From the NCBI GenBank assembly GCA_031285625.1, contig JAITVV010000028.1, forward strand, positions 1 to 27,087: 27,087 nt of DNA, read 5' to 3'. This DNA comes from Prevotella sp. GTDB taxonomy: Bacteria; Bacteroidota; Bacteroidia; Bacteroidales; Dysgonomonadaceae. The translations under genes and the position numbers were made by a program. The notes under the pieces are model-generated. The model was not told where the DNA came from. It saw only the letters and a program-made list of their open reading frames with translations, and made no database searches. Shown here in pieces: positions 1 through 26,706 of the stretch; position 1 is the first letter of the stretch; each line of letters opens with the position of its first letter.

Positions 1-81
1 CAATGTATACTAAATTTAATAATTTGACAAGAGTGAACTCCATTTTTTCGGCTGAAAATTTGGAGGTTAGCTATGTTTTAT

Positions 82-150
<69 letters not shown>

Positions 151-382
151 AGATCACATCTACACTATACTTTACATTCCTATAATAATTTTCATGGAGA
201 TTTTACATGCATACTTTTATATGCTAGTATTTTTACATGCTTACATACGCACATACGCACGATTGTAATTAATAAATTTCAAACAAACAAAATACTTTCA
301 ATTCTTTTCTATAAAAAATTGAAGAGCCACATATCAGAAGTATATTATCTAATATATTCTGATTTGTCATGCAAAATTCCAC

Positions 383-512
383 AAATTCAATGTCTTGAGA
401 AATATGGAGTGTTAAAAAAATACTGCTTGTTGTCTTTAGTATTTATCTTCGATCCATTGTCTTACTTACGGTTTGGGAAAATAGGAAGTGAGAACTTCGA
501 GACATTGAATTT
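383..512 (+). ncRNA. Candidate cis-regulatory structured RNA (three-stem junction), copy 1
   Basis: Closing stem AAATTCAATGTCTTGA (383-398) / TCGAGACATTGAATTT (497-512). Inner stems ATGGA/TCCAT, AAATACTG/TAGTATTT and TCTTACTT/AAGTGAGA. A homologous copy with compensatory changes lies at 2553-2680. Confidence 0.6.
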
Positions 513-573
513 TTATCAGACTTATAAATATCTATAAATATAATCACGAATGCTTAACTAAACTAGAGAAATT

Positions 574-2103
574 ATGAAGACAAAACTTACGGTTTTATTT
601 ATGAGCTGCACATTAATATTGCAAGGAATATCATCCCTTTCCGCTCAGGTAACAATTGGAACAAATGATCCACCTCAAAAATATTCAGTATTGGAAGTGG
701 TTTCCACAGCAACCAATCCCGGAGGATTACGACTGCCTCATGTAAGCGACACCGATAAGACTGCCCTGGAAGCGGACTTATTAGCTGATCCGAATAATAG
801 CAAAGGGTTATTAATCTACAGTACGAATAATGGACGCGTCGAATCATGGGATGGGACAAAATGGGTAGCTACTCAACAGCCATGGTTAGTTTCAGGAAGT
901 ACCACAGAGGCTACAACCAATACTCAGAATATATACCAGATGGGATCTGTAGCTATTGGGCATAATGGTGCAGTAGATCCTACTGCTATATTGAATGTAC
1001 AGTCTGCCAACAAGGGTGTATTACTTCCAAGAGTAGCATTAAAAAGCTCTACAGATGATGTAACAATCCCTACCCCTACCACCGGATTATTGGTATATAA
1101 TACAGGTGCTGAGTCAACTTTTACCACTGTGGGTTATATGTTTTGGGATGGTTCAGCATGGAAGTTATTTGCTAATTCTTCTTCAGAATCCGGATCTGCC
1201 AGACTGAACTGCGCGGGAGCAACTATGAGTCCTGCTCAGCAAATTGTAGGTGGAACAGATATTATAGCAGGTACTATACTACAGATACCATATACAGGTA
1301 GCAATGGCGGTAGCTTCAACGGTGCTACACTCACTTCCACCGGAAATCCTGACGTAACAGCGACAATTGCTGGAGGCATGCTATCAGCTGGTAATGGCGT
1401 ACTTAATTTTTCACTATCCGGTACTCCGACTACAAATCAACAGGCACCTAATGGCATTACTTTCGATCTCACAGATTTTCTTGATGCCAATACTGGCATT
1501 ACAGGTTGTGATGAGGTAGTAGTAGGTAATGTTTTAACCGCATCTATTGAATCTACAGCCGTGATGGGTTACTTAATGTATACAGTGGACAATACTGGCA
1601 ATGATGTGGGTACCGCAGGCTATACATTGCAATGTAATTCACCTGACGGTAAATTTTCGGCCAGAGTTCGTGTACCTGACAACCAATCTACAATTGTGTT
1701 AGGAAATCAATATATAAACATACAAATAAGGAATAACCAAAGTACTACACAAACCGTAATATGGAACTACAACACCATCTATAGCGGAGGAACTGTAGCC
1801 GGGGCAAATACTCTTACTATGCCTGCTCAGAGATGGGGTGGAAATAATAGTGATAGTGGCAGCACATGGTATAATGCTACTGCTGGCGCCACAGCCTATG
1901 GCGGCTATATGGGGAATTTAGGTATTTATGATGGTAGCGGACCTGAATATAGACGATATACATGGATTCCACTGGGAGCAGAGAATAAGGTATCTTATGA
2001 AATACATGTTATGGCAGCATTAGATACCACGACTCCGTCAACAGCAGTTTCTCCAACTAAACTAAAAGTTTATATTAAGTTCGACCAAGTAACAGCTCAG
2101 TAA
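574..2103 (+). CDS. Secreted hypothetical protein, putative fibre/adhesin-like surface protein (509 aa)
   Basis: Sec signal ending SA-Q. Two repeats of the module (V/A)IG...L.V.S..(G/K)G..LP.V...GLL.Y.T...WDG..W. Remainder is Thr/Gly/Asn-rich. Function inferred. Confidence 0.75.
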   Translation: MKTKLTVLFMSCTLILQGISSLSAQVTIGTNDPPQKYSVLEVVSTATNPGGLRLPHVSDTDKTALEADLLADPNNSKGLLIYSTNNGRVESWDGTKWVATQQPWLVSGSTTEATTNTQNIYQMGSVAIGHNGAVDPTAILNVQSANKGVLLPRVALKSSTDDVTIPTPTTGLLVYNTGAESTFTTVGYMFWDGSAWKLFANSSSESGSARLNCAGATMSPAQQIVGGTDIIAGTILQIPYTGSNGGSFNGATLTSTGNPDVTATIAGGMLSAGNGVLNFSLSGTPTTNQQAPNGITFDLTDFLDANTGITGCDEVVVGNVLTASIESTAVMGYLMYTVDNTGNDVGTAGYTLQCNSPDGKFSARVRVPDNQSTIVLGNQYINIQIRNNQSTTQTVIWNYNTIYSGGTVAGANTLTMPAQRWGGNNSDSGSTWYNATAGATAYGGYMGNLGIYDGSGPEYRRYTWIPLGAENKVSYEIHVMAALDTTTPSTAVSPTKLKVYIKFDQVTAQ

Positions 2104-2117
2104 AAATAAAAGAATAT

Positions 2118-2163
2118 ATATAAAAATAACGGATATCTCTAGGGATATCCGTTATTTTTATAT
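2118..2163. terminator. Intrinsic terminator (symmetrical, likely bidirectional)
   Basis: 20-bp perfect inverted repeat ATATAAAAATAACGGATATC / GATATCCGTTATTTTTATAT just after the stop at 2103. Confidence 0.85.
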
Positions 2164-2260
2164 GTCTATTTTATCACTAAGTTATTTGACATATAAATAT
2201 AGAGTCACTATTACACATAGCAAAATACATACTATTATGCATTATTTTTTACTAAAAGAC

Positions 2261-2289
2261 TTGTTTTTCTAAAAAAAGCATTACTTTTG
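2261..2289 (+). promoter_or_regulatory. Bacteroidetes primary-sigma promoter (-33 TTG, -7 TACTTTTG)
   Basis: TACTTTTG at 2282-2289 matches TAnnTTTG. TTG at 2261-2263 gives an 18-nt spacer. Implies a ~420-nt leader before the ATG at 2717. Confidence 0.6.
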
Positions 2290-2552
2290 CATCGTATCAA
2301 AGACAAGACAATAAGCGCAATGTACACCTTCACGAATAATTAAACATGAACGTACTCTATTTTCGTCTGAAAATCTAGAGACTGGCCTGTTTTATTACAG
2401 CTAGAGAGAGATTGAGAGAGAAGATATATCAGAGAGAAAAAAAGATCTATATTAGATAATAGATCGAAGAGAGAGATAAAGATATATTTAGAGTGAGAAC
2501 TAATCTATAAATACCCTTTACATTCTTATAATATTTTTACAATGAATTTTAT

Positions 2553-2680
2553 AAAATTCAATGCCTTAGAAAATATGGAGTAAAAAAATACTGCTTGTTG
2601 TCTTCAGTATGTGTATTCAATCCATTGTCTTACTTCGGTTTGGGAAAATAGAAAGTATGAATTTTGAGACATTGAATTTT
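2553..2680 (+). ncRNA. Candidate cis-regulatory structured RNA, copy 2
   Basis: Paralogue of 383-512. Closing stem 2553-2571 / 2662-2680. Inner stems ATGGA/TCCAT, ATACTG/CAGTAT and TACTT/AAGTA. Conserved loop sequences CTTGTTGTCT and CGGTTTGGGAAAATAG. Confidence 0.6.
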
Positions 2681-2716
2681 TTTCAAACTTTTTAAATACT
2701 ATAACTAAAAAAAATT

Positions 2717-3946
2717 ATGAAGACAAAACTTGCGATTCTATTATTGAGCTTCCTATTCATATTATCAGGAAACTCAAAACTCTTAGCCCAGGTAACAGTT
2801 GGAGATGATGAATCTCCGATTCAAGGCGCCCTACTCCAGCTGAAGGACAAATCAGATGTTACCGACGATAGTGATAATGCAACAAAGGGATTTGCTTATC
2901 CCCGAGTAAAATTAGAAGAAAGAGACCAGCTATACCCGATGTATAAAGGTAGTACAGAATATGCATCCGACAAGGTAGATATCGATAAACAACATACAGG
3001 TCTTACTGTATATAATACTTTCAAATCGGCGGATACTGAAACAAATGACAATCTCAAATTTCAAAAAGGACTTTATATCTGGACAGGTACCAGATGGGAA
3101 AGCGTTGGAGCCCCTCAGGTAGAGAACGGATTGAACATCGATAACCAAAGTGTTATTAGATTGGGAGGAACGCTTAATCAGGATACGGAAATAGATCAGG
3201 ATGGAAATACCCTGACTATTGCATCAGATCAAGATTTATTGTATATAACAGGATTGGCTGAAGGTAGCCAGAATGATTCCCGGGCCTTGGTTGTGGATAT
3301 AAATACCGGAAAGGTAGGTACTGCACCCTCTTTACCTGCGGTATTAACATTTGTACAATCTGAAACCATATACGACTTTAATTCAGGGAATAATGGGGTG
3401 GCCAAGAACCAAACGATGAGCACATCTTCATCTGCATTTAATACCAATCTTAATACCGGACAGAAAGTTGTTGTGCCATTTACGGATGACGACATTGTCA
3501 CAAACAACAAACTGACTTCCTTTAGCAACAGTGTATTTACCCTTTTGGAAGAAGGAAATGTGGAAATTAGCGGCTATATAAACTACAGTTGTGGAAATTC
3601 CGGAACTGAGGAAGTATTATTAAACCTGACATTACAGATCAGGAAAAATACAGGTACGCCTGAAGCGCCAGCCTATGCAAATGACTGGGAAGATTACAGT
3701 TCTGTACGTGCTGTATGGGTAGATGCACAACCTTATTATAGAAATACATTGATGGTTCCTCCTGCTATATATGACGGAAAAAAAGGGGATCAGATTCGCA
3801 TGGTTGTAGTAAGACCTTATGAAGTAGTAGGCACAACCGCTACTTTCCTTGGAGGACGACATGGAATAAACCAAAACTATGAGGTTTCATTTACAATCCC
3901 TTGGGGTACAAAATTCTCGAGAGGATTGAAAATTATTGCTCAATAA
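2717..3946 (+). CDS. Secreted hypothetical protein, paralogue family of 574-2103 (409 aa)
   Basis: Starts MKTKL and has a signal ending LA-Q-VTVG. Module GALLQLK...KGFAYPRVKL...GLTVYNT...GLYIWTGTRW. Ends in AQ like the upstream paralogue. Confidence 0.75.
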   Translation: MKTKLAILLLSFLFILSGNSKLLAQVTVGDDESPIQGALLQLKDKSDVTDDSDNATKGFAYPRVKLEERDQLYPMYKGSTEYASDKVDIDKQHTGLTVYNTFKSADTETNDNLKFQKGLYIWTGTRWESVGAPQVENGLNIDNQSVIRLGGTLNQDTEIDQDGNTLTIASDQDLLYITGLAEGSQNDSRALVVDINTGKVGTAPSLPAVLTFVQSETIYDFNSGNNGVAKNQTMSTSSSAFNTNLNTGQKVVVPFTDDDIVTNNKLTSFSNSVFTLLEEGNVEISGYINYSCGNSGTEEVLLNLTLQIRKNTGTPEAPAYANDWEDYSSVRAVWVDAQPYYRNTLMVPPAIYDGKKGDQIRMVVVRPYEVVGTTATFLGGRHGINQNYEVSFTIPWGTKFSRGLKIIAQ

Positions 3947-3967
3947 TATAGATATAGATCTAATTTG

Positions 3968-4000
3968 TAAAAGGGAATAAGAATGACTTATTCCCTTTTA
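3968..4000. terminator. Bidirectional intrinsic terminator between convergent genes
   Basis: TAAAAGGGAATAAG-aatga-CTTATTCCCTTTTA, 14-bp perfect stem. Confidence 0.85.
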
Positions 4001-4003
4001 TAT

Positions 4004-16419: not shown

Positions 16420-18161
16420 CTATACAAATTCTATTCCGGGTAATCTCATAAAGCAACTGTAATTTTTTTCGTATGTACCATTTCTTGTAAGTTGGGTATT
16501 ACTCGCGGTAAAATAAACCTGCTTTTTGGCTCTGGTTACAGCAACATAAAATACACTTAATTCTTCTAAAAATGCTTTTTCTATTTCACTACTAATCACA
16601 AAAATACAATCTGTGCCACACTTACATTTACTGCATAACCCAAACCAATTAGGAAATGAATCTTTTTCCATATCTGGTAATATCACATAATCCCATTCCA
16701 AACCTTTAGCCGCATGAACTGTAGATATTATAATTTGAATATCTAAAAACTCCATATACTGTTTTATGCCATTATGCTCAAAAGTATCCTTTATTAAGTT
16801 GATTTTGTCTTCGTTAGGAAGGAATGAATAATCAGCAACAGTGCTTTTATAACAGGAGAATCTTTATCTACATATATCTCTTTAATTTTATCTATATGCT
16901 TTCGACTTAATTTCTTCGTAATCTTTGTACTTATTTTGAGGAATTCAATAAATTCATAAAGACATTTCCTATTGAATTGCAAATACTCTGCATCATCATC
17001 AGTGAATAAGCCATAAAAGAAAGAAATTTTATTGTGGTCAAATGTTTTAATAATATGTTCGATATTTGGCCCTCTTTGTTTTGCTAATATTGCAACTTTA
17101 GAAGTTGGATGCAGACCCTGTATCTCTTGTGATTTTATTACCACCTCTAAAGCTTCCTTTACCTGATCCTCATAGATGTTAAATTCTATTTTTGAACTTA
17201 AAGCATTGGGGTTCTCGAATGGAGTAATTGCATTTTGCCTAATTATTTTATCCAATTGGAGCATATTTTCATTTGATGCAAATCTATAGTTTCTATCTAA
17301 TGAAATAAGTTTAAGTTTAAAATGGCTTTGGGCTCTACTTAATAAATTTGGCACTGCACCTATGAAACCATAAATTCTTTGTAAGGAGTCCCCTAAAAAA
17401 AGTACATTTGATTTATCCGAAATTAAATAGTTCAGAAGCCAATAACTTAACAAATTTGTATCTTGAAACTCATCAACAAGTATAGTTGTGTAATAATTTT
17501 GGTAAAATGATAAGACACTTGGATGCTCTTGAAATAATTTAATGGTTAATGTTATAATTGCATTAAAAGGTATAGCTTCTTTTTGCAATATCTCAGCAAT
17601 TACTACGGAGTTATATCCATTAATATTTTCCCTTAAATAAGTTCCTTTTATTTCTCTTACTGCAGAATTATAATTAGATAAAACATCAGCATCATTTATT
17701 GAAATGTTTTTAAATGACCGCATGATATTATCACTTCTGCTATCATCTATCGGTTGTAATGTGTCTAATTTAGATAAAGCTGGGTGTAATATGTGTCCGT
17801 ATTTTTTCAATACACTTCGGCAAAATCCATGATAATTAGATATATATGTTTTTTCTTTAATGTTTATTTGTTTGTCAAGCCCATCTAACAATTCTGGGAT
17901 ATTCTTACTTACATCTTTCTTTATCTTATAAGCAGCATTGACACTAAAAGTGAGTGCTAATAATCTTTTGGGTACAGGGATTTGCCCTATTGCAATCAAG
18001 TATGCAATCCTGCTTACCATTGTGTGAGTTTTACCATATCCTGCCGGAGCTTCAACTAAGAGACGTTTGTCAGGGGAGAAAATCACTTCTAATTGCTTAC
18101 TATCTCCTTGATGCTTTTCCTCTATTCGGGATTTAATAACAGATATTTCTTCGGGACTCAT
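16420..18161 (-). pseudogene. gajB: UvrD/Rep-family helicase (Gabija GajB-like), split by a frameshift
   Basis: 5' ORF (18161-16794) has APAGYGKT, VDEFQD, GDSLQRIYGF and NYRF. 3' ORF has STVHAAKGLEWD and YVAVTRAK. The -1 frame near 16840 reads continuously (ADYSFLPNEDKINLIKDTFEHNGIKQYMEF). ATGA overlap with the upstream nuclease. Confidence 0.75.
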
Positions 18162-19882
18162 GAGCACAAACCTTTAGCATGTTCAATTAAGGAAATATAG
18201 ATTTGTGGAATATCTTCTTTTTCAAGTTTCATTCCTATTAAAAGACCTAAGGGCTGCGATTTATTTATAGAAAACCATGTCGAATAAAAAGCCTTTAAGT
18301 TCACAATATCTGTATCATCTATTTCGGAAAGTTTTAAATTTGTTGATGTTGGAGCAGGTAAATAATTGTATTTTTTGTGTGCTCTTTTATTCAATGCAGC
18401 AGCTTCCATCACTCTATTCTCTCCTTCAGAATCAAATTCAATAACAATATCATACAAGACGCTCCCTTTCCCTGAATCAACTAAAGCCATTAATTCTGCT
18501 TCAAAATCACGTTCTGTGGTTTTCCATAAATTAGGGATTCCTGTTGAGGTTGGATCTCCGTCGCTATCTTTGATTCCAACGCAAGGTATTCCAAATTTTT
18601 CAGCCAATTGAATCAACTGTAAAACAGAATCTCCACCTGCTTGAATAACGCAAATCCCATATTCATCGATGTCTATGTCGCATTTTTGAGCAAAAAAGGG
18701 AAAACTGCCATACTCTGAATCACCTTCAACAAAAATTGCACATCTGGCAAAAAAAGCTTCTTTAATAAAAGGGAAATGTAACAGTAAATGCTTTTCAAGC
18801 TGTTCCCCTAACGTCAAATTTATCCCGGATACAATTTTAGTATCGTTATTATCTTTATAAAGTCGTATTATTTGTCTAAAATCATTCAATATAATACTCG
18901 GAGAATGTGTTGCAACAATAATTTGCCCATCAAACTTATCAATATCAAATAGCTCTTTTATCAATATGCTTAAATCCGAATCTTGATTATTAATAACTTT
19001 ATTTAAATATTTTATTAACGAGCGTTGCATATAAGGATGTAAGTGGATTTCAGGCTCATCAAGACCTAAAACTACAGATATAGATTTACGTCCTGTTTCT
19101 TCATTCACAAAAACACCTGTTTCTTTTCTTTGATCTGAAATTGTTTGAAGTTTATCTAATATAGAAAGTGTGACTAATAATAGAAATTGGATTCCATATC
19201 CACATTTTGAAAGAGGTGCACCTTTATTATCTTGTAATGAAAATAATTTGGGGATTAGTTGTAGAACATCCCCCTCTAAAACGGCGGATATTCCATTGTC
19301 TTTAAAGGACTTTATCCTTCCAAGTTTAGCATTTACATCTGCCAATAGACTTCCTGTAAATTCAGCAGCAATTAAATTTTCCGATACAATATCTTCTTCA
19401 TTTGCCAAATAATCTTTTATCATTCTGGATAAGAAACGACCAACGCCACGGCTACTATCAAAGTTAATTTCGGATATAGGATTCCTTAAAGAATCATAAT
19501 AGATGAAATTTAAACATTTTATAAGTGAAAGAGAAATATAGGTTTCTGTTTCTAAATGGTAAAACTCCATATTTTCATCCGGAGCCACTTGCCTACATAC
19601 AATGTTTATATATGTATAATCGTCCAAATCAAATAAATCTTCGAAATGCCCAATCTCGTCAATGGCAAGTTTTATTCGGACATTAACAGTTATGGGTAAT
19701 GTGGCGTCATTAAAATCATCATAAGCGAAACCTCTTCGGGCAAAAACAATATTCAATAGATTTAGAATATTTGATTTCCCTAAATTATTTTCTCCTACAA
19801 TAAAATTACATGATTCCTCAAATGCAATCGTTGCAGTACTCAAATTCCTGTAATTTTCAACAGAAAGTTCTTTTATCCTCAT
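18158..19882 (-). CDS. gajA: OLD-family ATP-dependent nuclease (ABC ATPase + TOPRIM), Gabija GajA-like
   Basis: Walker A GENNLGKS, Walker B/D-loop LDEPEIHLHP, H-loop ATHS, TOPRIM VEGDSE and DSD. Coupled to a UvrD helicase. Start re-called at MRIKEL. Confidence 0.8.
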   Translation of the reverse strand: MRIKELSVENYRNLSTATIAFEESCNFIVGENNLGKSNILNLLNIVFARRGFAYDDFNDATLPITVNVRIKLAIDEIGHFEDLFDLDDYTYINIVCRQVAPDENMEFYHLETETYISLSLIKCLNFIYYDSLRNPISEINFDSSRGVGRFLSRMIKDYLANEEDIVSENLIAAEFTGSLLADVNAKLGRIKSFKDNGISAVLEGDVLQLIPKLFSLQDNKGAPLSKCGYGIQFLLLVTLSILDKLQTISDQRKETGVFVNEETGRKSISVVLGLDEPEIHLHPYMQRSLIKYLNKVINNQDSDLSILIKELFDIDKFDGQIIVATHSPSIILNDFRQIIRLYKDNNDTKIVSGINLTLGEQLEKHLLLHFPFIKEAFFARCAIFVEGDSEYGSFPFFAQKCDIDIDEYGICVIQAGGDSVLQLIQLAEKFGIPCVGIKDSDGDPTSTGIPNLWKTTERDFEAELMALVDSGKGSVLYDIVIEFDSEGENRVMEAAALNKRAHKKYNYLPAPTSTNLKLSEIDDTDIVNLKAFYSTWFSINKSQPLGLLIGMKLEKEDIPQIYISLIEHAKGLCS

Positions 19883-19904
19883 GACGCTTAATTTAAAATC
19901 GTCA

Positions 19905-19934
19905 CAAAAATACGCATATAAAAACACCTGACAA
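19905..19934 (-). promoter_or_regulatory. Promoter of the gajAB cassette (TTG-N19-TATTTTTG)
   Basis: TAnnTTTG match 22 nt upstream of ATG 19882, with TTG at a 19-nt spacing. Confidence 0.55.
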
Positions 19935-19978: not shown

Positions 19979-20089
19979 CTATTCTACCTCCTCCCCCCAC
20001 AACTCCACATCCGTCTTAGCATTCCGGCAGGCGACATACGCCCAACCATCAACTACGGTAGCGAACAAAATGTAGCATAGAATAAACAT
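19979..20089 (-). CDS. Putative 36-aa peptide coupled to traQ
   Basis: TGATG stop/start overlap with traQ; MFILCYILFATVVDGWAYVACRNAKTDVELWGEEVE. Confidence 0.3.
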   Translation of the reverse strand: MFILCYILFATVVDGWAYVACRNAKTDVELWGEEVE

Positions 20090-20538
20090 CATATCCCCGA
20101 AGTTTCAGTTTCTACCTCCTCTTCCGTTGTCTCATTGTTGAACGTGAATATCAAAGGAAATTCCCTTCCAAAACTATCGAAGAATACCACTTCTACATTA
20201 TGCGCATCTTCTGACATGGAACGAAAATACAGCCTGAAAGAAATATCTGTTATTTCGTATGCATCATTCGGAAGAAATGGCTCATCATCATTCATCCATA
20301 AGAGACCGGAGCCATCATATTGGAAGTAACGCAGATAGTAGCGGGTATTGTCGTATTCGCCCTGCCGGTGCAGCGTACAGCGTATTTCGGCTACCTCATT
20401 CACCTGTAGCTTTTTCGGCACAGGCAGGTGAGAGACCGAGAATTCATAATCCTGCATAATATCAATATCGTCGCTACAGGCACACGCTATCGCAGCCAGC
20501 AATAGCGTAAAAATAATATAGGATGCACATTTTCTCAT
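20089..20538 (-). CDS. traQ: Conjugative transposon lipoprotein TraQ (DUF3872)
   Basis: Lipobox then DDIDIMQDYEFSV.HLPVPK, EIRCTL and RYFQYDG.G. Confidence 0.88.
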   Translation of the reverse strand: MRKCASYIIFTLLLAAIACACSDDIDIMQDYEFSVSHLPVPKKLQVNEVAEIRCTLHRQGEYDNTRYYLRYFQYDGSGLLWMNDDEPFLPNDAYEITDISFRLYFRSMSEDAHNVEVVFFDSFGREFPLIFTFNNETTEEEVETETSGI

Positions 20539-20567
20539 TTTGTTTTATTTTTTTAGATGTTAAATAT

Positions 20568-21155
20568 TTAATTCAGGATAAACTTGATACCTCCGCCTAT
20601 TTGGGTATGAAACAGGTTAATGGAGGAACCGCCCAGAATACGTTCCCTGACAGTGAGCAGCAATACAATACGGTCGGATAAGTATGTTTCCACCTCGAAT
20701 GTTACCGCCCCGCCGTACAGGAAATTATCCTCACTGCTAATGGTAGCCCCATCGAACAGGAGCTTCTCTCCCCAGTTCACCGTTTCGTACCCCGCCATCG
20801 CCGAAGCTCCGATAGAGAAGAAAACCGTCTTGCTCGGGTCGCTCAGGAACTTGTAGTAATACCCGCCCTCTACTGTGAATTGGACGGTTGGTATCAACTC
20901 CGTTTTATATTGGTAGGACTTTTGCAGGTACTCCCCGCCGAATACCCAGCGGTTGCCGTTCTTCGTGTAGGTGGTAAGGGCGATACCGCCCGCAAAGGCT
21001 TGTTTGTTCCCCTTTTCCAAATAGAAGCCATCTACCGCACTTGCTGTTACTTGTAGTCCTTTCTGTCCCGGCAAATAACGCTGAGCGTGTGCCTGCCCAC
21101 AGAGGGCAAGGCTCAATGAAAAGGCCAATGTGATTATTAATGTTATTCTGTTCAT
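20568..21155 (-). CDS. traO: Conjugative transposon protein TraO
   Basis: AHAQRYLPGQKG, QFTVEGGY, GYETVNWG; position after traN. Confidence 0.92.
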   Translation of the reverse strand: MNRITLIITLAFSLSLALCGQAHAQRYLPGQKGLQVTASAVDGFYLEKGNKQAFAGGIALTTYTKNGNRWVFGGEYLQKSYQYKTELIPTVQFTVEGGYYYKFLSDPSKTVFFSIGASAMAGYETVNWGEKLLFDGATISSEDNFLYGGAVTFEVETYLSDRIVLLLTVRERILGGSSINLFHTQIGGGIKFILN

Positions 21156-21197
21156 CTGTTTTTATATTATATCTGTTAACAGAAGGGTCTGTGACCC

Positions 21198-22208
21198 TTA
21201 CTTTATTTTCAGTTCGTTGATTTGTTTAGCACAAATAAGGTCGGTGTTCTCAATGGTAAAGGTCTGGTTCCGTCCGCCGTTCTTCTCAAAGACTTCAATA
21301 ATCAGTTGCTTGTCGGCAGGAATCGTGATTTTGTCCAATGCGAACACCGTGCGTTCCATCTGATTAGCCCCAACGGATGAAACGAAGTTGTAGGAACGAA
21401 GCGGATAGATAACCGTTTCCTGCATACTGGTTCGTTTCGCCAGCTTCTTATCAACGATTTTCATCCGCACAAAATCAATATCGAAGGATACATTGGTGGA
21501 GTTCTGAATCTGTGTATGCAGGTACAGGAGGTTGTTGTGCGAATAAACCCCTTTCAGGGTATACCGGATACCGAAACGTTTTCCGCCGATGTGCTTGATG
21601 TGGCGTTTGTTGTCGGTGTATATGGCACGGTTTATCAGGTACACAATGCGGGGCGATTCACTGCCGAGTTCTTTCAGATAGATGTCTAAACTGTTATTCG
21701 GACGGTTGGTAGCGATGCCATCGTGCATAAAGTCCTTCATTTCAATGTTGAGCTTTTCCGGCTCGTCCGCATATTTTACATTATAGGTGTAATAGCTTCC
21801 TTCGTCCGTAATCACGGCAAGGTTGGTTTCTGTTTCAAAGCCCCGGATAGCTGCTTTGACTCGCAGGATATTTTCCGAAGTACCCGCCTTGCCTGCAATG
21901 ATATTCGCCGAACCCAAGTCCACATAACGGATGGACGAGGGAAAGATGATATGCACCGTTTTGTCAAATGTAACCTCCAGTCCATAAGGCGGTATCATCC
22001 GGTCAAAGGTGATTTTCTTGGTCAAGCCTTCGTAATAATCCCCGAATGTGGGATTGAGTACTTGCTGCAGGTCTTCCTGCATCTCTTCCGGTGTTTTATT
22101 GACAACAGGAATCGTATCGTTATTTTCTTTTCCTGTATTGTTTTCTGTCTGTGCATTGGCTGTAATCGTTGTTACCGCCAAAGCGAATAATAAAATGTAC
22201 TTTTTCAT
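21198..22208 (-). CDS. traN: Conjugative transposon protein TraN
   Basis: FDRMIPPYGLEVTFDKTVHIIFP, YVDLGS and EKNGGR. Confidence 0.93.
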   Translation of the reverse strand: MKKYILLFALAVTTITANAQTENNTGKENNDTIPVVNKTPEEMQEDLQQVLNPTFGDYYEGLTKKITFDRMIPPYGLEVTFDKTVHIIFPSSIRYVDLGSANIIAGKAGTSENILRVKAAIRGFETETNLAVITDEGSYYTYNVKYADEPEKLNIEMKDFMHDGIATNRPNNSLDIYLKELGSESPRIVYLINRAIYTDNKRHIKHIGGKRFGIRYTLKGVYSHNNLLYLHTQIQNSTNVSFDIDFVRMKIVDKKLAKRTSMQETVIYPLRSYNFVSSVGANQMERTVFALDKITIPADKQLIIEVFEKNGGRNQTFTIENTDLICAKQINELKIK

Positions 22209-22251
22209 TTTTCTTTTTTATTTATTTGATTATTAAAATGTTTGTTGAATC

Positions 22252-22283
22252 CATTGGCACATTGGCACATCTTCACATTGGCT
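22252..22283. repeat. Octamer tandem repeat (CATTGGCA-like x4) between traM and traN
   Basis: CATTGGCA CATTGGCA CATCTTCA CATTGGCT. Confidence 0.75.
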
Positions 22284-22285
22284 AA

Positions 22286-23629
22286 TTAGTCTTGTTTAGG
22301 AAGCAACATCACCCGATAGCCGCTTTTCAGATGCACTTTCACCTGTCTGATTTTCTTCTGCATATACTGGCTGACACCCTGTATCGCCCCTTTGGTCAGG
22401 TCGGAGGTAATCTGTGCTCCCGCATCATCGGTTATCGTGAAGCCCGAACCGACCGAGCTTCCCATATTGGCGGCAATCTCCTTGACAGCATCCAGTTCCA
22501 GCGAGTTCGGAATAAAAATGCCCCGCTGCCCGTCCGAATCGTAAATGTCGATTTCCACCGGGATAATCGCCCCGCCCAACTCAATGGAATTGATGGAGAT
22601 ACCCAGCCGTTCGCCTTGCAGAGCCGCCGTTCCCGTCAAAATGGAGTTGGCGGGGATGACCGTTGTTCCCGCAATCAGGGCTTCGGTCAGTCGCAAACGG
22701 ACACTTTGCCCGCTGATAAGCGTCTGGTCATCGTGTATCACCGCCGAAATGGTATTTTTCTCATTTACCCCGGCAGTGGCCTCCATTGTGTTAAATCCCA
22801 TATTGCGGGGCTGGTTGAAGCCTGCGATAAACTCAGTATTGGGAATATGCTGTGCCAGTGCCGATACCGTTTGTTCCCGCACCTGCTTGATAACCGATAC
22901 CTGCGTCCTGTCATTCCTGCCACTGTTGTTGGAGGAAGAATTGGCTTGAGAGCCTCCAGCTTCCAATGTTATAGATTCACTCTTTGCCGATTGTCCTTGC
23001 GGGGTTTGTCCACCCGGCATATACTTAGCTGCCAGCTGGTAGGATTTTTCGATAAGAGCCAGCTGGTCATTGGCAGCATCCTGCTTGGTGGTTTCCTCTT
23101 CCAATTTGCGTTCCAGCTCCTGCATACGCCATTCGAGGGCAAGCTGTGCCTGTTCATCTACCTCTGTGGCGGGCTCTTCATAGAAATTGCTCAAGGTGCT
23201 GCTGATATTCCGGTAGGAAGATGCCGAGTTACGAATGGCATCATCCGAAGGCGCACTTTTCCGGCTTATTTTCTCTTCGGTAATCCCAATCACATTTCCG
23301 TCTATCGCCTCCTGCTCGTCCCCGATAAGGGAAGAGAAGTCTTCGAGCGATTTACGCTTATTATCCCTGTTGTGCATCAATGCTTCCTGTTCATAGGCTT
23401 TCTGCTTGTCGCCGATGATTCCCTGATTGTTCGGGTCGGGGATTTCGGTATTGAAGCCCTGTCCCTGTTCTTCTTTTTCCTTATCGGAAGACGAGGGTGC
23501 GAAAATCAGGTACAATACGCCCAAAAAGATAATGCCGATAAGGGCGAAGAAACCATATTTTTTTAACAGTTGCTTCTGCTTCTCTTTCTCCTGCTGCTCA
23601 TCCCCTGTTTTTTCCTGTTCTTTTTTCAT
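22286..23629 (-). CDS. traM: Conjugative transposon protein TraM
   Basis: N-terminal TM, GFNTEIPDP, SYQLAAKYMP, GQSVRLRL, YDSDGQRGIFIP and VKVHLKSGY. Confidence 0.93.
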   Translation of the reverse strand: MKKEQEKTGDEQQEKEKQKQLLKKYGFFALIGIIFLGVLYLIFAPSSSDKEKEEQGQGFNTEIPDPNNQGIIGDKQKAYEQEALMHNRDNKRKSLEDFSSLIGDEQEAIDGNVIGITEEKISRKSAPSDDAIRNSASSYRNISSTLSNFYEEPATEVDEQAQLALEWRMQELERKLEEETTKQDAANDQLALIEKSYQLAAKYMPGGQTPQGQSAKSESITLEAGGSQANSSSNNSGRNDRTQVSVIKQVREQTVSALAQHIPNTEFIAGFNQPRNMGFNTMEATAGVNEKNTISAVIHDDQTLISGQSVRLRLTEALIAGTTVIPANSILTGTAALQGERLGISINSIELGGAIIPVEIDIYDSDGQRGIFIPNSLELDAVKEIAANMGSSVGSGFTITDDAGAQITSDLTKGAIQGVSQYMQKKIRQVKVHLKSGYRVMLLPKQD

Positions 23630-23993
23630 TGCTTATTAAAAATTTGTCGTTTATACTATCTATATTATCTGTGTCTTGCAGGTAGAGTTCTATATCGACC
23701 GGAGAATCCATTAATTCCATCCTGTTGATATTGTCGCTATCATTCTCTGCGTCAGAGTCCATAATACCCAAGCCCTCTATATGCTGCATTTCGGGAATTT
23801 CTTGTCTTCCGTCCCTATGTCCCCAGTTGTATATAGTGAAGATGGAGAAATACAGATTCCCTATGGTAAATATCAGCAGCATGGAGAGGATGACCATCAG
23901 CCGTGCATCTTCCGAAAGCCCTCCGCATATCCGGCGGAGTCTGTCATTGATGCTATATCCCAGTTCTTTGAAAATATGCTTTAAATACTTCAT
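23598..23993 (-). CDS. traL: TraL-family conjugative transposon protein
   Basis: LRRICGGLS..ARL.VIL plus a TM and MQHIE; located between traK and traM. Confidence 0.75.
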   Translation of the reverse strand: MKYLKHIFKELGYSINDRLRRICGGLSEDARLMVILSMLLIFTIGNLYFSIFTIYNWGHRDGRQEIPEMQHIEGLGIMDSDAENDSDNINRMELMDSPVDIELYLQDTDNIDSINDKFLISNEKRTGKNRG

Positions 23994-24004
23994 AGCCTTG
24001 TGGA

Positions 24005-24631
24005 TTAGCGTTCAACGGTCAGGATGTCCTTATTCTCCCTTATCTCGAAATTCTCCATAAAGAAGCCGTGAGGGTTATCGTCCGAACGGGAGGTATTCAA
24101 CAATTGGCAAGTAGTAACCAACGAGCGTTCCGTCAAATTACTTTCCCTTATGATAATCTGCCGGGCATAAGTCGCTACCTGGTAGGGGTACACATCAAAG
24201 TCGCATTTGATACTGTCCACAATCACGTTCTGGATGATATTGCCGGAGATGATACGATTGTAATACCCCTTTTCCGCCCAGTCCTTGTAATAATTAAAGG
24301 CGGTCTTGTCACACAGCACCATTGCCCGCTGAATATTGCTTTCTATCGCATTCTTGTCGGGCGAGAGGGTAAAGAACAATTCGTGAAAGCGTTTGACATG
24401 TTCCCGCGCTTCGACAGGTCTGTTTTGCGACAAGTCCTGCGAGAGAGCCAGCATCAAGGATTTTCCTTCGTCCAGCACATAGATTTTCTCCCTTTGCTTT
24501 TCAGCAAAACCGTAGGCGCTCCATACGGAATATCCCGCGACTATGGCACACAGGCAAAGGGATACGATGCTGAACAGCCTGATTTGCCGGAAACTGGTTT
24601 CTATATTTTTTAAACTTTTAAATTCCATCAT
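24005..24631 (-). CDS. traK: Conjugative transposon protein TraK
   Basis: MEFKSLKNIETSFRQIR, HVKRFHELFFTLSPD and RSDDNPHGF. Confidence 0.95.
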   Translation of the reverse strand: MMEFKSLKNIETSFRQIRLFSIVSLCLCAIVAGYSVWSAYGFAEKQREKIYVLDEGKSLMLALSQDLSQNRPVEAREHVKRFHELFFTLSPDKNAIESNIQRAMVLCDKTAFNYYKDWAEKGYYNRIISGNIIQNVIVDSIKCDFDVYPYQVATYARQIIIRESNLTERSLVTTCQLLNTSRSDDNPHGFFMENFEIRENKDILTVER

Positions 24632-24733
24632 ACTAATGTGATAATTTGAGAATATGCCGATATGCCAATGGTAATTACCGAGCCGTGTAATTATCCGTCC
24701 ATTGGCACACCGGCCTGTTAAACTATTGGCTCC

Positions 24734-25831
24734 TTAAGTTCTCTCCGGAGAGTTGGAGTTTCTGCCATTTGTAGAGTAGTTTCGTCCCTGAGGCTGGCTG
24801 CCATTGCTGCTACCGGAATTTCCGCTATTGCCTCCGGAACCACTGCTTTTTAGTCTTCCTACAATATTTCCACCTGCTGCACCGGCTCCGGCACCTGCCA
24901 CGGAAGCGCCCTTAGATGTGGACTGGTTGACGTTCTTACCGTAGTTACCCATACCACCCGCTTGGATGATCCATCCTGCAACAGTCGGAATGGTGAAGAA
25001 TCCCACAATGCCGATGAGCAGGAAGACCACATATACGCCGTCCGAAGCATCCAGTGAATAGTTCGGATCTTCCTGCATACGGAGAATGTCGCTTTCCAGC
25101 ATCCGCACTTGGAGCCGCGCCATAATGGAACTGAACAAGTCCGATACGGGAAGCCACAGATAAACGCTGACATAGCGTGTGAGCCACTGGACAAGCGTCG
25201 ATTGGAAGCCATCGAAGACCGATATGGCAAAAGCTATCGGCCCCAGTATGGCAAGCACAATCAGGAAGAACGTCCGTATCACATCTATTATCAGGGCGGC
25301 GGCGTTAAACAGCGTTTCCAAAAACGAGCGGAACAAACCCTGAAACCATTTCTTCATATCGTAGAAGGAGCGCTCTATATACATCCCCGCTATTTCCGGC
25401 GCATCCGTGATGCCCAGTTCTTCCAGTTTCTTGTCGAACTCCGCCTGATCGACCAAATAAGCGGTTTCCTTGTTCCGCTTCTTCTGTTCGATTTCGAGCT
25501 TGTCATTGGTCTCCGCCAATGCCTGCATATCCAGTGTCTGCTGTCCCAAGATACCGTGTGCACCCTGTACGACCGGATTGAGGATAGAGTTTACCGTACC
25601 CAGCACCAATGTAGGGAAGAACATAATGCAGATACCGATAGCAAAAGGGCGTAAGAGCGGATACACATCTATCTGTTCTGCCCGAGCGATGCTTTGCCAT
25701 ACACGGGACGAGACATAGAGCAATGCTCCGATACCGGCGATGCCTTTGGCTACCCCGATAAGGTCGCCGCAGAGCGGCATCATGTCGTTGTAGAGGTCGC
25801 GGAGTATCTGATGAATACTTTCAAAATCCAT
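24734..25831 (-). CDS. traJ: Conjugative transposon protein TraJ (VirB6-like)
   Basis: AKGIAGIGAL, IDVYPLLRPF, FDGFQSTL.QW..RY.SVYLWLPVSD; low-complexity G/S/N tail. Confidence 0.95.
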   Translation of the reverse strand: MDFESIHQILRDLYNDMMPLCGDLIGVAKGIAGIGALLYVSSRVWQSIARAEQIDVYPLLRPFAIGICIMFFPTLVLGTVNSILNPVVQGAHGILGQQTLDMQALAETNDKLEIEQKKRNKETAYLVDQAEFDKKLEELGITDAPEIAGMYIERSFYDMKKWFQGLFRSFLETLFNAAALIIDVIRTFFLIVLAILGPIAFAISVFDGFQSTLVQWLTRYVSVYLWLPVSDLFSSIMARLQVRMLESDILRMQEDPNYSLDASDGVYVVFLLIGIVGFFTIPTVAGWIIQAGGMGNYGKNVNQSTSKGASVAGAGAGAAGGNIVGRLKSSGSGGNSGNSGSSNGSQPQGRNYSTNGRNSNSPERT

Positions 25832-25840
25832 AAATTTTTA

Positions 25841-25980
25841 ATTTGAAGATTTGACAAATAACATTCGCCGAAGCGAATGCGAGGCAATTAGCAAATTCGG
25901 AAATGAAAAAACATTTGCTAATCTCCGAATTTGCTCATTTGCTCATTGTTGACTGTTAACTGCTCACTGTTAACTGTCCA
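25841..25980. repeat. Composite intergenic repeat: octamer-based inverted repeat, 29-nt insert, heptamer array
   Basis: AGCAAATTCGGA/TCCGAATTTGCT arms (25890-25901/25924-25935); five YTG-start heptamers at 25946-25980; insert at 25859-25887. Confidence 0.7.
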
Positions 25981-26610
25981 TTACCAGTACCTGTCGTTTT
26001 CGTCCCCGTACAAGTCCAGTACACGCCCGGTCGTATTTTTCTCCTTTGCCCGGAGCAGGGAGACGGAGATATTCTTGTTGGTATAGTACTTTACCAAAGA
26101 GCGGTATTCCAGCATCTTGTTGTAGGCATTGTCTATCACCTCCATCCGCTCCTTATCCGAGAGGGACAGGGTGCTGACGTTCACTATCCCCTTGAGTTCC
26201 TGCAACACGTCATCCGATTCGTTGAGCAGCTTGGTGTAGCCGTCTGCGATAGCTACCAGTTCCTCTACCGTAAAATTGTCATCGGAGAGCATATTCTCAA
26301 AGCTGTTTACATAGATGTCGGTAATCTCACCCACCAAGAGGATGGTTTTCTGCACTTTCTTGGCATCCTTTACCATGTTGTTTACCTTTTTCAGGGCATC
26401 GTAGTATTCTTTTCCCTGATTGTATACCTTTTGAACCTCCTTAAAGTTGTTCAGCATGTTGGTAGCCGTACTGGAAGTCTGCACGATGTTTTTAGTGGCA
26501 TTGATAATGCCCTGCGCCAGATTACCCGGGTCACTTACGACCCACTGGGCTTTCGCCCCCGTTACGGCAAGCATACAGCTTACGCATAACATGAAAATTC
26601 TTATCTTCAT
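25981..26610 (-). CDS. traI: DUF4141 conjugative transposon protein (TraI)
   Basis: AQWVVSDPGNLAQ, GKEYYDALK.VN and YYTNKNISVS; upstream of traJ. Confidence 0.88.
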   Translation of the reverse strand: MKIRIFMLCVSCMLAVTGAKAQWVVSDPGNLAQGIINATKNIVQTSSTATNMLNNFKEVQKVYNQGKEYYDALKKVNNMVKDAKKVQKTILLVGEITDIYVNSFENMLSDDNFTVEELVAIADGYTKLLNESDDVLQELKGIVNVSTLSLSDKERMEVIDNAYNKMLEYRSLVKYYTNKNISVSLLRAKEKNTTGRVLDLYGDENDRYW

Positions 26611-26706
26611 ATTCACTTGTTTTTAATTAATAAATTACTGATTAATAAACTCTTGTTTACTCTTTGTCTTTCGTTTTTTCTGTATTCTCGTTATCGTGGT
26701 TTACCC

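Follow-up and report, generated by a model that had tools for sequence, protein, structure and literature searches.

The window, by which we mean the whole stretch of 27,087 nucleotides analysed here, holds near its left end two paralogous genes for secreted proteins of one family, here named AQVTIG, and just upstream of each gene, on the same strand, a copy of an element of ~130 nt (Table 1). Both genes are monocistronic and each is closed by a canonical terminator of its own. In the predicted fold of the element, a long closing stem (P1) surrounds two arms, one formed by the short helix P2a and the hairpin P2, the other by the hairpin P3, and a U-run lies at the 3' end.

Table 1. Coordinates of the element, its parts and the neighbouring genes (entries that begin with a locus number give positions within that locus)
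Feature	Position	Strand	Basis and remarks
Copy 1, whole model match	380-518	+	Covariance model R1, 137.4 bits; R2, 121.1 bits; RNAfold -36.6 kcal/mol, z -3.2
Copy 1, P1 5' arm	383-399	+	Pairs with 496-512; RNAfold, 17 pairs
Copy 1, P2a 5' arm AUGGA	404-408	+	Partner UCCAU at 453-457; RNAfold
Copy 1, P2 hairpin	418-444	+	Stem 418-425/437-444; loop 426-436 = CUUGUUGUCUU; RNAfold
Copy 1, P3 hairpin with internal loops	460-493	+	Tip GUUU(GGGA)AAAU at 471-482; RNAfold
Copy 1, P1 3' arm (496-512) running into U-run (510-514)	496-514	+	Sequence and RNAfold
AQVTIG gene 1, 509-aa secreted protein	574-2103	+	Terminator at 2118-2163
Copy 2, whole model match	2551-2685	+	Covariance model R1, 140.5 bits; RNAfold
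Copy 2, parts	P1 2553-2571/2662-2680; P2 2588-2610; P3 2628-2660; U-run 2677-2683	+	RNAfold
AQVTIG gene 2, 409-aa paralogue	2717-3946	+	ATG ~33 nt past the U-run; terminator at 3966-4002
HTH proteins beside the element	L035 494-1477; L038 1029-1994; L125 9-974		Weak BetR-type domain, E 3.4e-5 (L035) and 1.2e-3 (L038); none for L125
Tandem orphan copies	L042 934-1045 and 1501-1645; L114 743-871 and 1327-1471		

Over 130 nt the two copies share 86% identity. A preliminary description of this DNA had read compensating changes from them, and its particulars are all found in the sequence. In the closing stem, G397-C498 and A398-U497 of copy 1 are replaced by A2568-U2665 and G2569.U2664 in copy 2, whose stem contains a single mismatch (C2564 x A2669). 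In the inner hairpin, which reads UACUG-CUUGUUGUCUU-UAGUA in copy 1, the wobble pair G425.U437 becomes a G-C pair in copy 2 (...CAGUA). The loop CUUGUUGUCUU and the stretch CGGUUUGGGAAAAUAG are the same in both copies by pairwise alignment, and both closing stems are followed by a U-run.

When each copy is folded by itself with RNAfold, the energy of copy 1 is equalled by 0 of 200 shuffles. Copy 2 gives a weak result (-26.5 kcal/mol, z = -1.5, with 18 of 200 shuffles equally good) and its reverse strand folds comparably (z = -2.8), so that two copies are insufficient to settle either structure or strand, and an alignment of 65 copies was needed.

Structure and strand across 65 copies

Two covariance models were made here, R1 from 4 copies and R2 from 40 copies, and 65 copies were fitted to R2 in an alignment (A6) on which the support for the pairs described below depends. 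In this alignment 87.2% of the cells at modelled pairs are paired, against 71.6 +/- 0.5 in shuffles; changes on both sides occur at 39 of 44 pairs, against 31.3 +/- 1.9 in shuffles; and the covariation score is 0.445, against 0.201 when shuffled and 0.057-0.111 (4-8 fold lower) when the pairing partners are slid. Not one of 500 shuffles reaches any of these measures.

Each helix contributes to this signal. P1, which varies from 17 to 24 bp in length, has 19 modelled pairs, with 91.5% of cells paired and 17 of the 19 pairs changed on both sides; examples are CAAUGCC/GGCAUUG becoming CAAUACC/GGUAUUG, and UUC/GAA becoming UCC/GGA. The cores of its two arms, TCAATG and CATTGA, are strongly conserved in sequence. 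P2a has 5 pairs, of which all 5 covary and 90.3% of cells are paired, and its raw sequences keep complementarity through variants such as AUGGA/UCCAU, AUGAAGG/CCUUCAU, GGGG/CCCC and AGGGAG/CUCCCU. P2 has 8 pairs (79% paired), and its loop carries a conserved UUGUCUU; a second copy of this motif, UUUGUCUUC, lies 3' of the 3' arm of P2. The resulting direct repeat, TTGTCTT-N6-TTTGTCTT, is conserved as sequence and not as pairing. More generally, the junction and the loops are conserved across copies.

In all 65 copies P3, which has 12 pairs, closes with a GNGA tetraloop (GUGA in 36, GGGA in 18, GCGA in 7 and GAGA in 4). Towards the loop, its tip is made up of a C-G pair, a 1x1 loop in which an A is conserved, a wobble pair, a C-G or U-A pair, two U-A pairs and the tetraloop. 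The wobble pair is G.U in 36 copies, A-U in 6, G-C in 6 and another combination, including A.C, in 17; below the tetraloop, at alignment pair 196/205, C-G changes to U-A.

RNAalifold on collected homologues, which the preliminary description had proposed as a check, was run on a structure-blind MAFFT alignment. P1 and the tip of P3 are recovered and the plus strand scores better than the minus strand (-27.0 versus -20.6), whereas P2 and P2a are absent from the consensus, so that the support for these two helices comes from the model-fitted alignment and from inspection of the raw sequences.

The strand is further indicated by the wobble pairs. The ratio of G.U to A.C is 84:30 in P1, 33:10 in P2a, 46:8 in P2 and 93:45 in P3, or 256:93 in total, and the GNGA loop has no counterpart on the opposite strand. 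The G.U excess in every helix, together with this loop and the better plus-strand consensus fold, indicates an RNA read in the sense of the downstream genes. By this comparative sequence evidence the element is a structured plus-strand RNA of ~130 nt whose compensatory changes, found in P1, P2a, P2 and P3, exceed those of controls; the branched plus-strand RNA with covariation that had been proposed from two copies is thus upheld with 65.

Distribution and gene context

Searches with nhmmer and with R1 and R2 found about 12 copies in the genome to which the window belongs, on contigs C55 (2), C62, C10, C42 (2), C23, C84, C37, C12 (2) and C29. Several of them lie at contig ends, so that the assembly is broken by the repeat. 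Contigs C42 and C62, for instance, share identical final ~120 bases that include the 3' half of the element, and the break falls inside the repeat. The pair on C42 is a tandem around a gene remnant: in that locus (L038, G000:C42, 72-507, minus strand) the two copies are split by a 110-aa remnant ORF that has the MKTKL start and lacks the AQVTIG domain.

With R2, 20 of the 34 further species searched in the genus proved to carry the element, in up to 14 copies each, and it was found in none of 116 genomes from 20 sister genera of the family. The genus as a whole holds roughly 76 copies. Across 149 sampled genomes of the order outside the genus, a single marginal match of 44 nt was obtained. The carrier genus is probably Dysgonomonas; the carriers with a name are Dysgonomonas sp. 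PF1-14 and a Dysgonomonas metagenome-assembled genome (MAG). The sequencing run that matches the window best, and that may be its source, carries the label termite gut metagenome. An exact-pattern scan returned 26 loci in genome contigs, of which only 4 are real, all in Dysgonomonas, 54 loci in metagenome contigs, of which 1 is real, and 2 loci in viral contigs, of which 0 are real; such a pattern is too narrow for mapping the distribution.

Rfam 15 gave no match at the gathering score over the whole window. When the threshold was relaxed to E <= 10 for bases 1-3000, 7 weak matches appeared, which are confined to 1663-2194 and touch neither 380-518 nor 2551-2685. The element is thus a candidate RNA family outside the curated families of Rfam 15, and would add a new family to RNA catalogues. 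Literature searches on noncoding RNA, RNA motifs, invertons and phase variation in Dysgonomonas returned no report of it.

Its genomic setting is markedly regular. An ORF of the AQVTIG family (signal peptide and AQVTIG motif at its start) lies on the same strand just downstream of 45 of the 65 copies, 43 of these having been linked by pattern and two, in loci L109 and L068, by inspection. Among the 44 family ORFs that were measured, the start codon lies 31-96 nt after the element in 38 and 163-279 nt after it in 6. Three more copies are cut by a contig end or stand ahead of a gene remnant. Some 17 of the 65 copies keep the fold and have no family gene behind them. They include a locus shared by three species (L062, L070 and L072), where the element precedes another gene by 195 nt, and tandem copies in two species, ~290 nt upstream of a gene for a KdpD-like sensor, with no AQVTIG gene (Table 1). 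With 45 of 65 copies in fixed position and orientation before one gene family, the element would not appear to be a mobile repeat (MITE) scattered in either orientation.

The proteins are more widely distributed than the RNA: their family is present in 31 of 34 genomes of the genus, and many of its genes have no element, as in genome G027, with 33 protein matches versus 2 RNA matches. Local searches of Pfam, NCBIfam and PHROGs gave no match for AQVTIG proteins, which carry a precomputed PF26696 label in a large protein database. An AlphaFold model is beta-rich (pLDDT 80.7), and a Foldseek comparison with the PDB gave no usable fold match (best E 2.9e-4, TM <= 0.17). The best named relatives of the downstream protein are a protein from a Dysgonomonas MAG (92% identity) and one from D. 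termitidis (61%).

The spacer between the element and the ATG is A-rich and unstructured. Bacteroidota largely do without Shine-Dalgarno pairing, and in most family genes the spacer contains a conserved AACUAAA(C) 10-25 nt upstream of the ATG (window 540-573 and other spacers), which may be a translation-initiation enhancer.

A candidate leader and competing explanations

In copy 2, only ~33 nt lie between the U-run and the ATG. In Bacteroides thetaiotaomicron, only ~3.7% of 5' UTRs are shorter than 10 nt (PMC7366714). The spacer of copy 2 is too short to accommodate both a promoter of its own and a normal 5' UTR, so that transcription of the gene would have to pass through the element. Contigs assembled from RNA libraries (X2) connect the element with the ORF, at 2517-3942 and 415-1655, and are consistent with transcription of the element; they also cover the gene-free interval 2151-2526 at about half the depth, and the libraries may contain DNA.

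The consensus of the Bacteroidota -7 box is TAnnTTTG. Within 110 nt upstream, this canonical box is absent from 34 of 40 copies, and the matches in the other 6 stand at no fixed distance. A TTTACA...TATAAT-like stretch upstream is common to only some copies. About 230 nt upstream of copy 1 lies a pure (GA)n microsatellite of ~35 units (window 78-146); a degenerate GA-rich stretch precedes copy 2 (2400-2500), and a masked CT/GA repeat precedes the copy in locus L063 of another species. Changes in the length of such GA tracts could matter for promoter activity.

At six columns following the core of P1, T is present in 42-58 of 65 copies, and the 5'-side partner is A in 37-57; at one tail column, T occurs in 56 of 65 copies and its partner is A in only 37. 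A run of at least four T residues is found in 43 of 60 tails. The U-run is therefore kept better than pairing requires, which is an intrinsic-terminator signature and points to a 5' leader in which P1 and the U-run would attenuate transcription.

Of the two functions that had been put forward in the preliminary description, a terminator-forming domain keeps part of its force: a stable stem stands directly before a U-rich tract (17 bp in P1 of copy 1), and this tract is conserved beyond the needs of pairing, whereas the stem is branched and A-U rich beside the U-run. The G+C-rich hairpin with a short loop that typifies simple terminators is not what is found here, the loop being replaced by the two-arm insert of ~95 nt, and a simple terminator scan restricted to loops of 3-8 nt flags 2118-2163 and 3966-4002 and not the element. 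The aptamer-like domain is not borne out: a search for an alternative fold, whether antiterminator or expression platform, found none, no metabolic gene context was seen, no ligand was found and the conserved junction and loops mark out no binding pocket. UUGUCUU was considered as an alternative partner of the 3' arm of P1 and was rejected, the motif being unchanged where the P1 arms become CAAUACC/GGUAUUG; it shows no covariation with either the P1 arms or the start region.

On balance we think it probable that the element is the 5' leader of the mRNAs for secreted, beta-rich AQVTIG proteins in a single genus, and that its P1 and U-run form an attenuator set by a trans-acting factor. P1 encloses two arms, P2a/P2 with its two UUGUCUU motifs (one in the loop, one in the 3' flank) and P3 with GNGA above a conserved wobble pair; with the conserved U-run that trails it, P1 would attenuate in the manner of an intrinsic terminator. 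The trans-acting factor would recognise the tetraloop and the invariant single-stranded motifs, and would thereby set the level of transcription or translation of the gene downstream; a short RNA of ~135 nt, with its 3' end at the U-run, would arise as a by-product. As the effector, we favour an RNA-binding protein over a small molecule. The attenuator and its effector are inferences, in that the promoter was not located, no alternative fold was found and the expression data consist of contigs that also cover intergenic DNA.

Two facts of distribution count against a leader, namely the orphan copies that keep the fold and the family genes that lack an element, and the orphans would equally fit a free-standing small RNA. 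Under that alternative, which we consider unlikely, every copy would be a separate gene of ~135 nt, with P1 and the U-run at its end, and would act in trans through UUGUCUU, for example on starts reading AUGAAGACAAA, the neighbouring protein gene being merely linked or a target. The conserved U-run after a long helix would suit such an RNA, as would the folded copies before the KdpD-like gene and at the locus shared by three species. UUGUCUU(C) is, moreover, complementary to the first codons of a subgroup of family genes beginning MKTKL (AUGAAGACAAA), to which both window copies belong. The MKTKL duplexes reach -11 to -14.7 kcal/mol, which only 1-15% of control start regions match, and 22 of 44 starts have an AGACAA or AAGACA site nearby, compared with 4.9% of windows taken at random from the genome. 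Families of multicopy RNAs that block start regions are also known in Bacteroides, an example being FopS, with 14 copies (PMC11697453). However, most of the 22 sites represent one inherited signal-peptide start and are not independent, and the subgroups beginning MKQ... and MIQ... keep UUGUCUU without a match. Masking of the start codon by UUGUCUU as a family-wide mechanism was accordingly rejected: over 44 copies, the proportion of control start regions that pair equally well has a median of 0.35. Close association with a single gene family, on one side only (45 of 65 copies, always on the same strand), is expected of a leader, and the spacer of copy 2 is too short to hold a promoter for the gene itself.

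The remaining explanations differ in what they make of the motifs and of P1. We give a low probability to a branched aptamer-terminator sensor that would bind a dedicated protein or a metabolite through the UUGUCUU loops and GNGA, and would coordinate which of the dozen paralogous secreted proteins are made, possibly in a mutually exclusive manner; if real, this circuit would do at the level of RNA what DNA inversions do in other Bacteroidales. Somewhat less plausible still is a passive fold, that is, a 5' stabiliser, an insulator or an RNase III site protecting an abundant surface-protein mRNA, the TTGTCTT repeats and TCAATG/CATTGA serving as DNA operators of BetR-type HTH proteins. A stabiliser would be consistent with the length and high stability of P1, with its location at or close to the 5' end and with the A-rich spacer that comes next, ahead of the ATG. 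Conservation of TTGTCTT-N6-TTTGTCTT as sequence rather than pairing would suit operators, as would the paralogous BetR-type HTH proteins of ~320 aa that adjoin the element in 7 of 61 loci, divergently upstream in L035 and L038. Yet a passive fold leaves the invariant GNGA tetraloop, the conserved wobble pair and the two invariant loop motifs unexplained; a spacing of 13 bp is unusual for operators recognised as direct repeats; and the HTH genes form a large family found near only a minority of copies. Besides the three in Table 1, they occur beside copies in L041, L049, L054 and L057, with a weak partial match in an eighth locus (L127). In this genome the family occupies at least 15 places on 13 contigs, with tblastn matches at about 20, and three tandem HTH copies adjoin the element on contig C37, on the opposite strand. 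These proteins may be locus-specific regulators.

An inverton, in which the P1 arms would be inverted repeats and a recombinase would flip a ~95-bp promoter to switch a surface-protein gene on or off, is in our judgement highly improbable. Inverted repeats of 16-24 bp do surround a short segment directly upstream of genes for surface or secreted proteins, which is the usual setting of invertons in Bacteroidales; the TCAATG/CATTGA arm cores are strongly conserved, and the two arms of an inverton would be expected to co-vary at each locus. Against this, all 45 gene-linked copies in this genome and its relatives in the genus stand in one orientation and 0 are flipped relative to the AQVTIG gene, which argues against an invertible promoter. 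Covariation extends to the inner helices P2a, P2 and P3, where an inverton has no need of it, and the GNGA loop and the excess of G.U over A.C, 84:30 even within P1, are features of RNA that tell the strands apart. Inspection of the segment revealed no canonical promoter box, a Pfam scan of 25 window ORFs revealed no recombinase, and no strand-changing joints were seen in four sequencing runs, examined as contigs, which drop minority forms.

Relation to known systems and the rest of the window

We return to the preferred reading, a leader with a P1/U-run attenuator. Like orphan cis-regulatory motifs and riboswitch candidates (of the Weinberg/Breaker type and in Rfam), the element is a conserved multi-stem junction 5' of one class of genes, on the sense strand, with covarying helices, invariant nucleotides in loops and junction, and a GNRA-type tetraloop. 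It differs from these in its P1 of 17-24 bp, far longer than the usual switching helix, in the lack of an alternative expression-platform fold and in its genes, which encode secreted proteins without assigned function rather than metabolic enzymes or transporters; it also differs in being confined to one genus among the genomes searched, with no Rfam 15 match. With intrinsic terminators and attenuators it shares a stable helix with a conserved U-run (4-8 nt) immediately behind it and an A-run on its 5' flank, and a location between the promoter region and the start codon. Unlike theirs, its 'loop' is a structured insert of ~95 nt with two arms instead of 3-8 nt, its helix is A-U rich beside the U-run, and no competing antiterminator was found.

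FopS and GibS of B. thetaiotaomicron are the nearest multicopy RNAs in the order (PMC11697453, PMC7366714). They are described there as short, unbranched and trans-acting, and FopS as RNAs of ~65-70 nt with canonical promoters and SusC-like mRNA targets (PMC11697453). Like the element, they are Bacteroidales RNAs present in a dozen or so copies per genome, with a conserved single-stranded motif able to pair at the start codons of envelope-protein mRNAs (PMC11697453, PMC7366714). Compared with FopS, the element is longer (~130 nt) and branched, has no canonical promoter that can be recognised and stands fixed in cis ahead of a single gene family. It showed no similarity in sequence to FopS or GibS, Rfam scans being empty and the model finding nothing outside the genus. 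Bacteroidales invertons share with it the inverted repeats around a short segment upstream of genes for surface or secreted proteins, in many copies per genome; the single orientation of 45 of 45 copies, the covariation of the inner helices, the strand-specific G.U excess and the absence of a recombinase among the window ORFs set it apart.

The combination of a long P1 with a U-run, a dozen copies per genome, the tie to a multigene family of secreted proteins and the restriction to one genus among the genomes searched is unusual. A long P1 fused to a U-run would be an uncommon attenuator architecture, if the element is an attenuator. To our knowledge, Bacteroidota lack Hfq, ProQ and CsrA, and we know of few cis-acting RNAs in this phylum beyond the common riboswitches, its RNA regulation being poorly charted. 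A structured leader that is specific to one genus, present in many copies and linked to a single family of secreted proteins would offer a handle on the control of the surface repertoire in insect- and gut-associated bacteria.

The remainder of the window contains genes of other kinds. On the minus strand, at 16420-19927, a protein of the OLD-family ATPase-TOPRIM type (589 aa) adjoins a UvrD-type helicase that is apparently split into ORFs of 457 and 111 aa, an arrangement that we take to resemble the Gabija defence pair. Also on the minus strand, at 20089-26616, lies a run of transfer genes of the CTnDOT conjugative-transposon type (TraJ, TraL, TraM, DUF4138, TraO and TraQ), which indicates that the right half of the window belongs to an integrative conjugative element.
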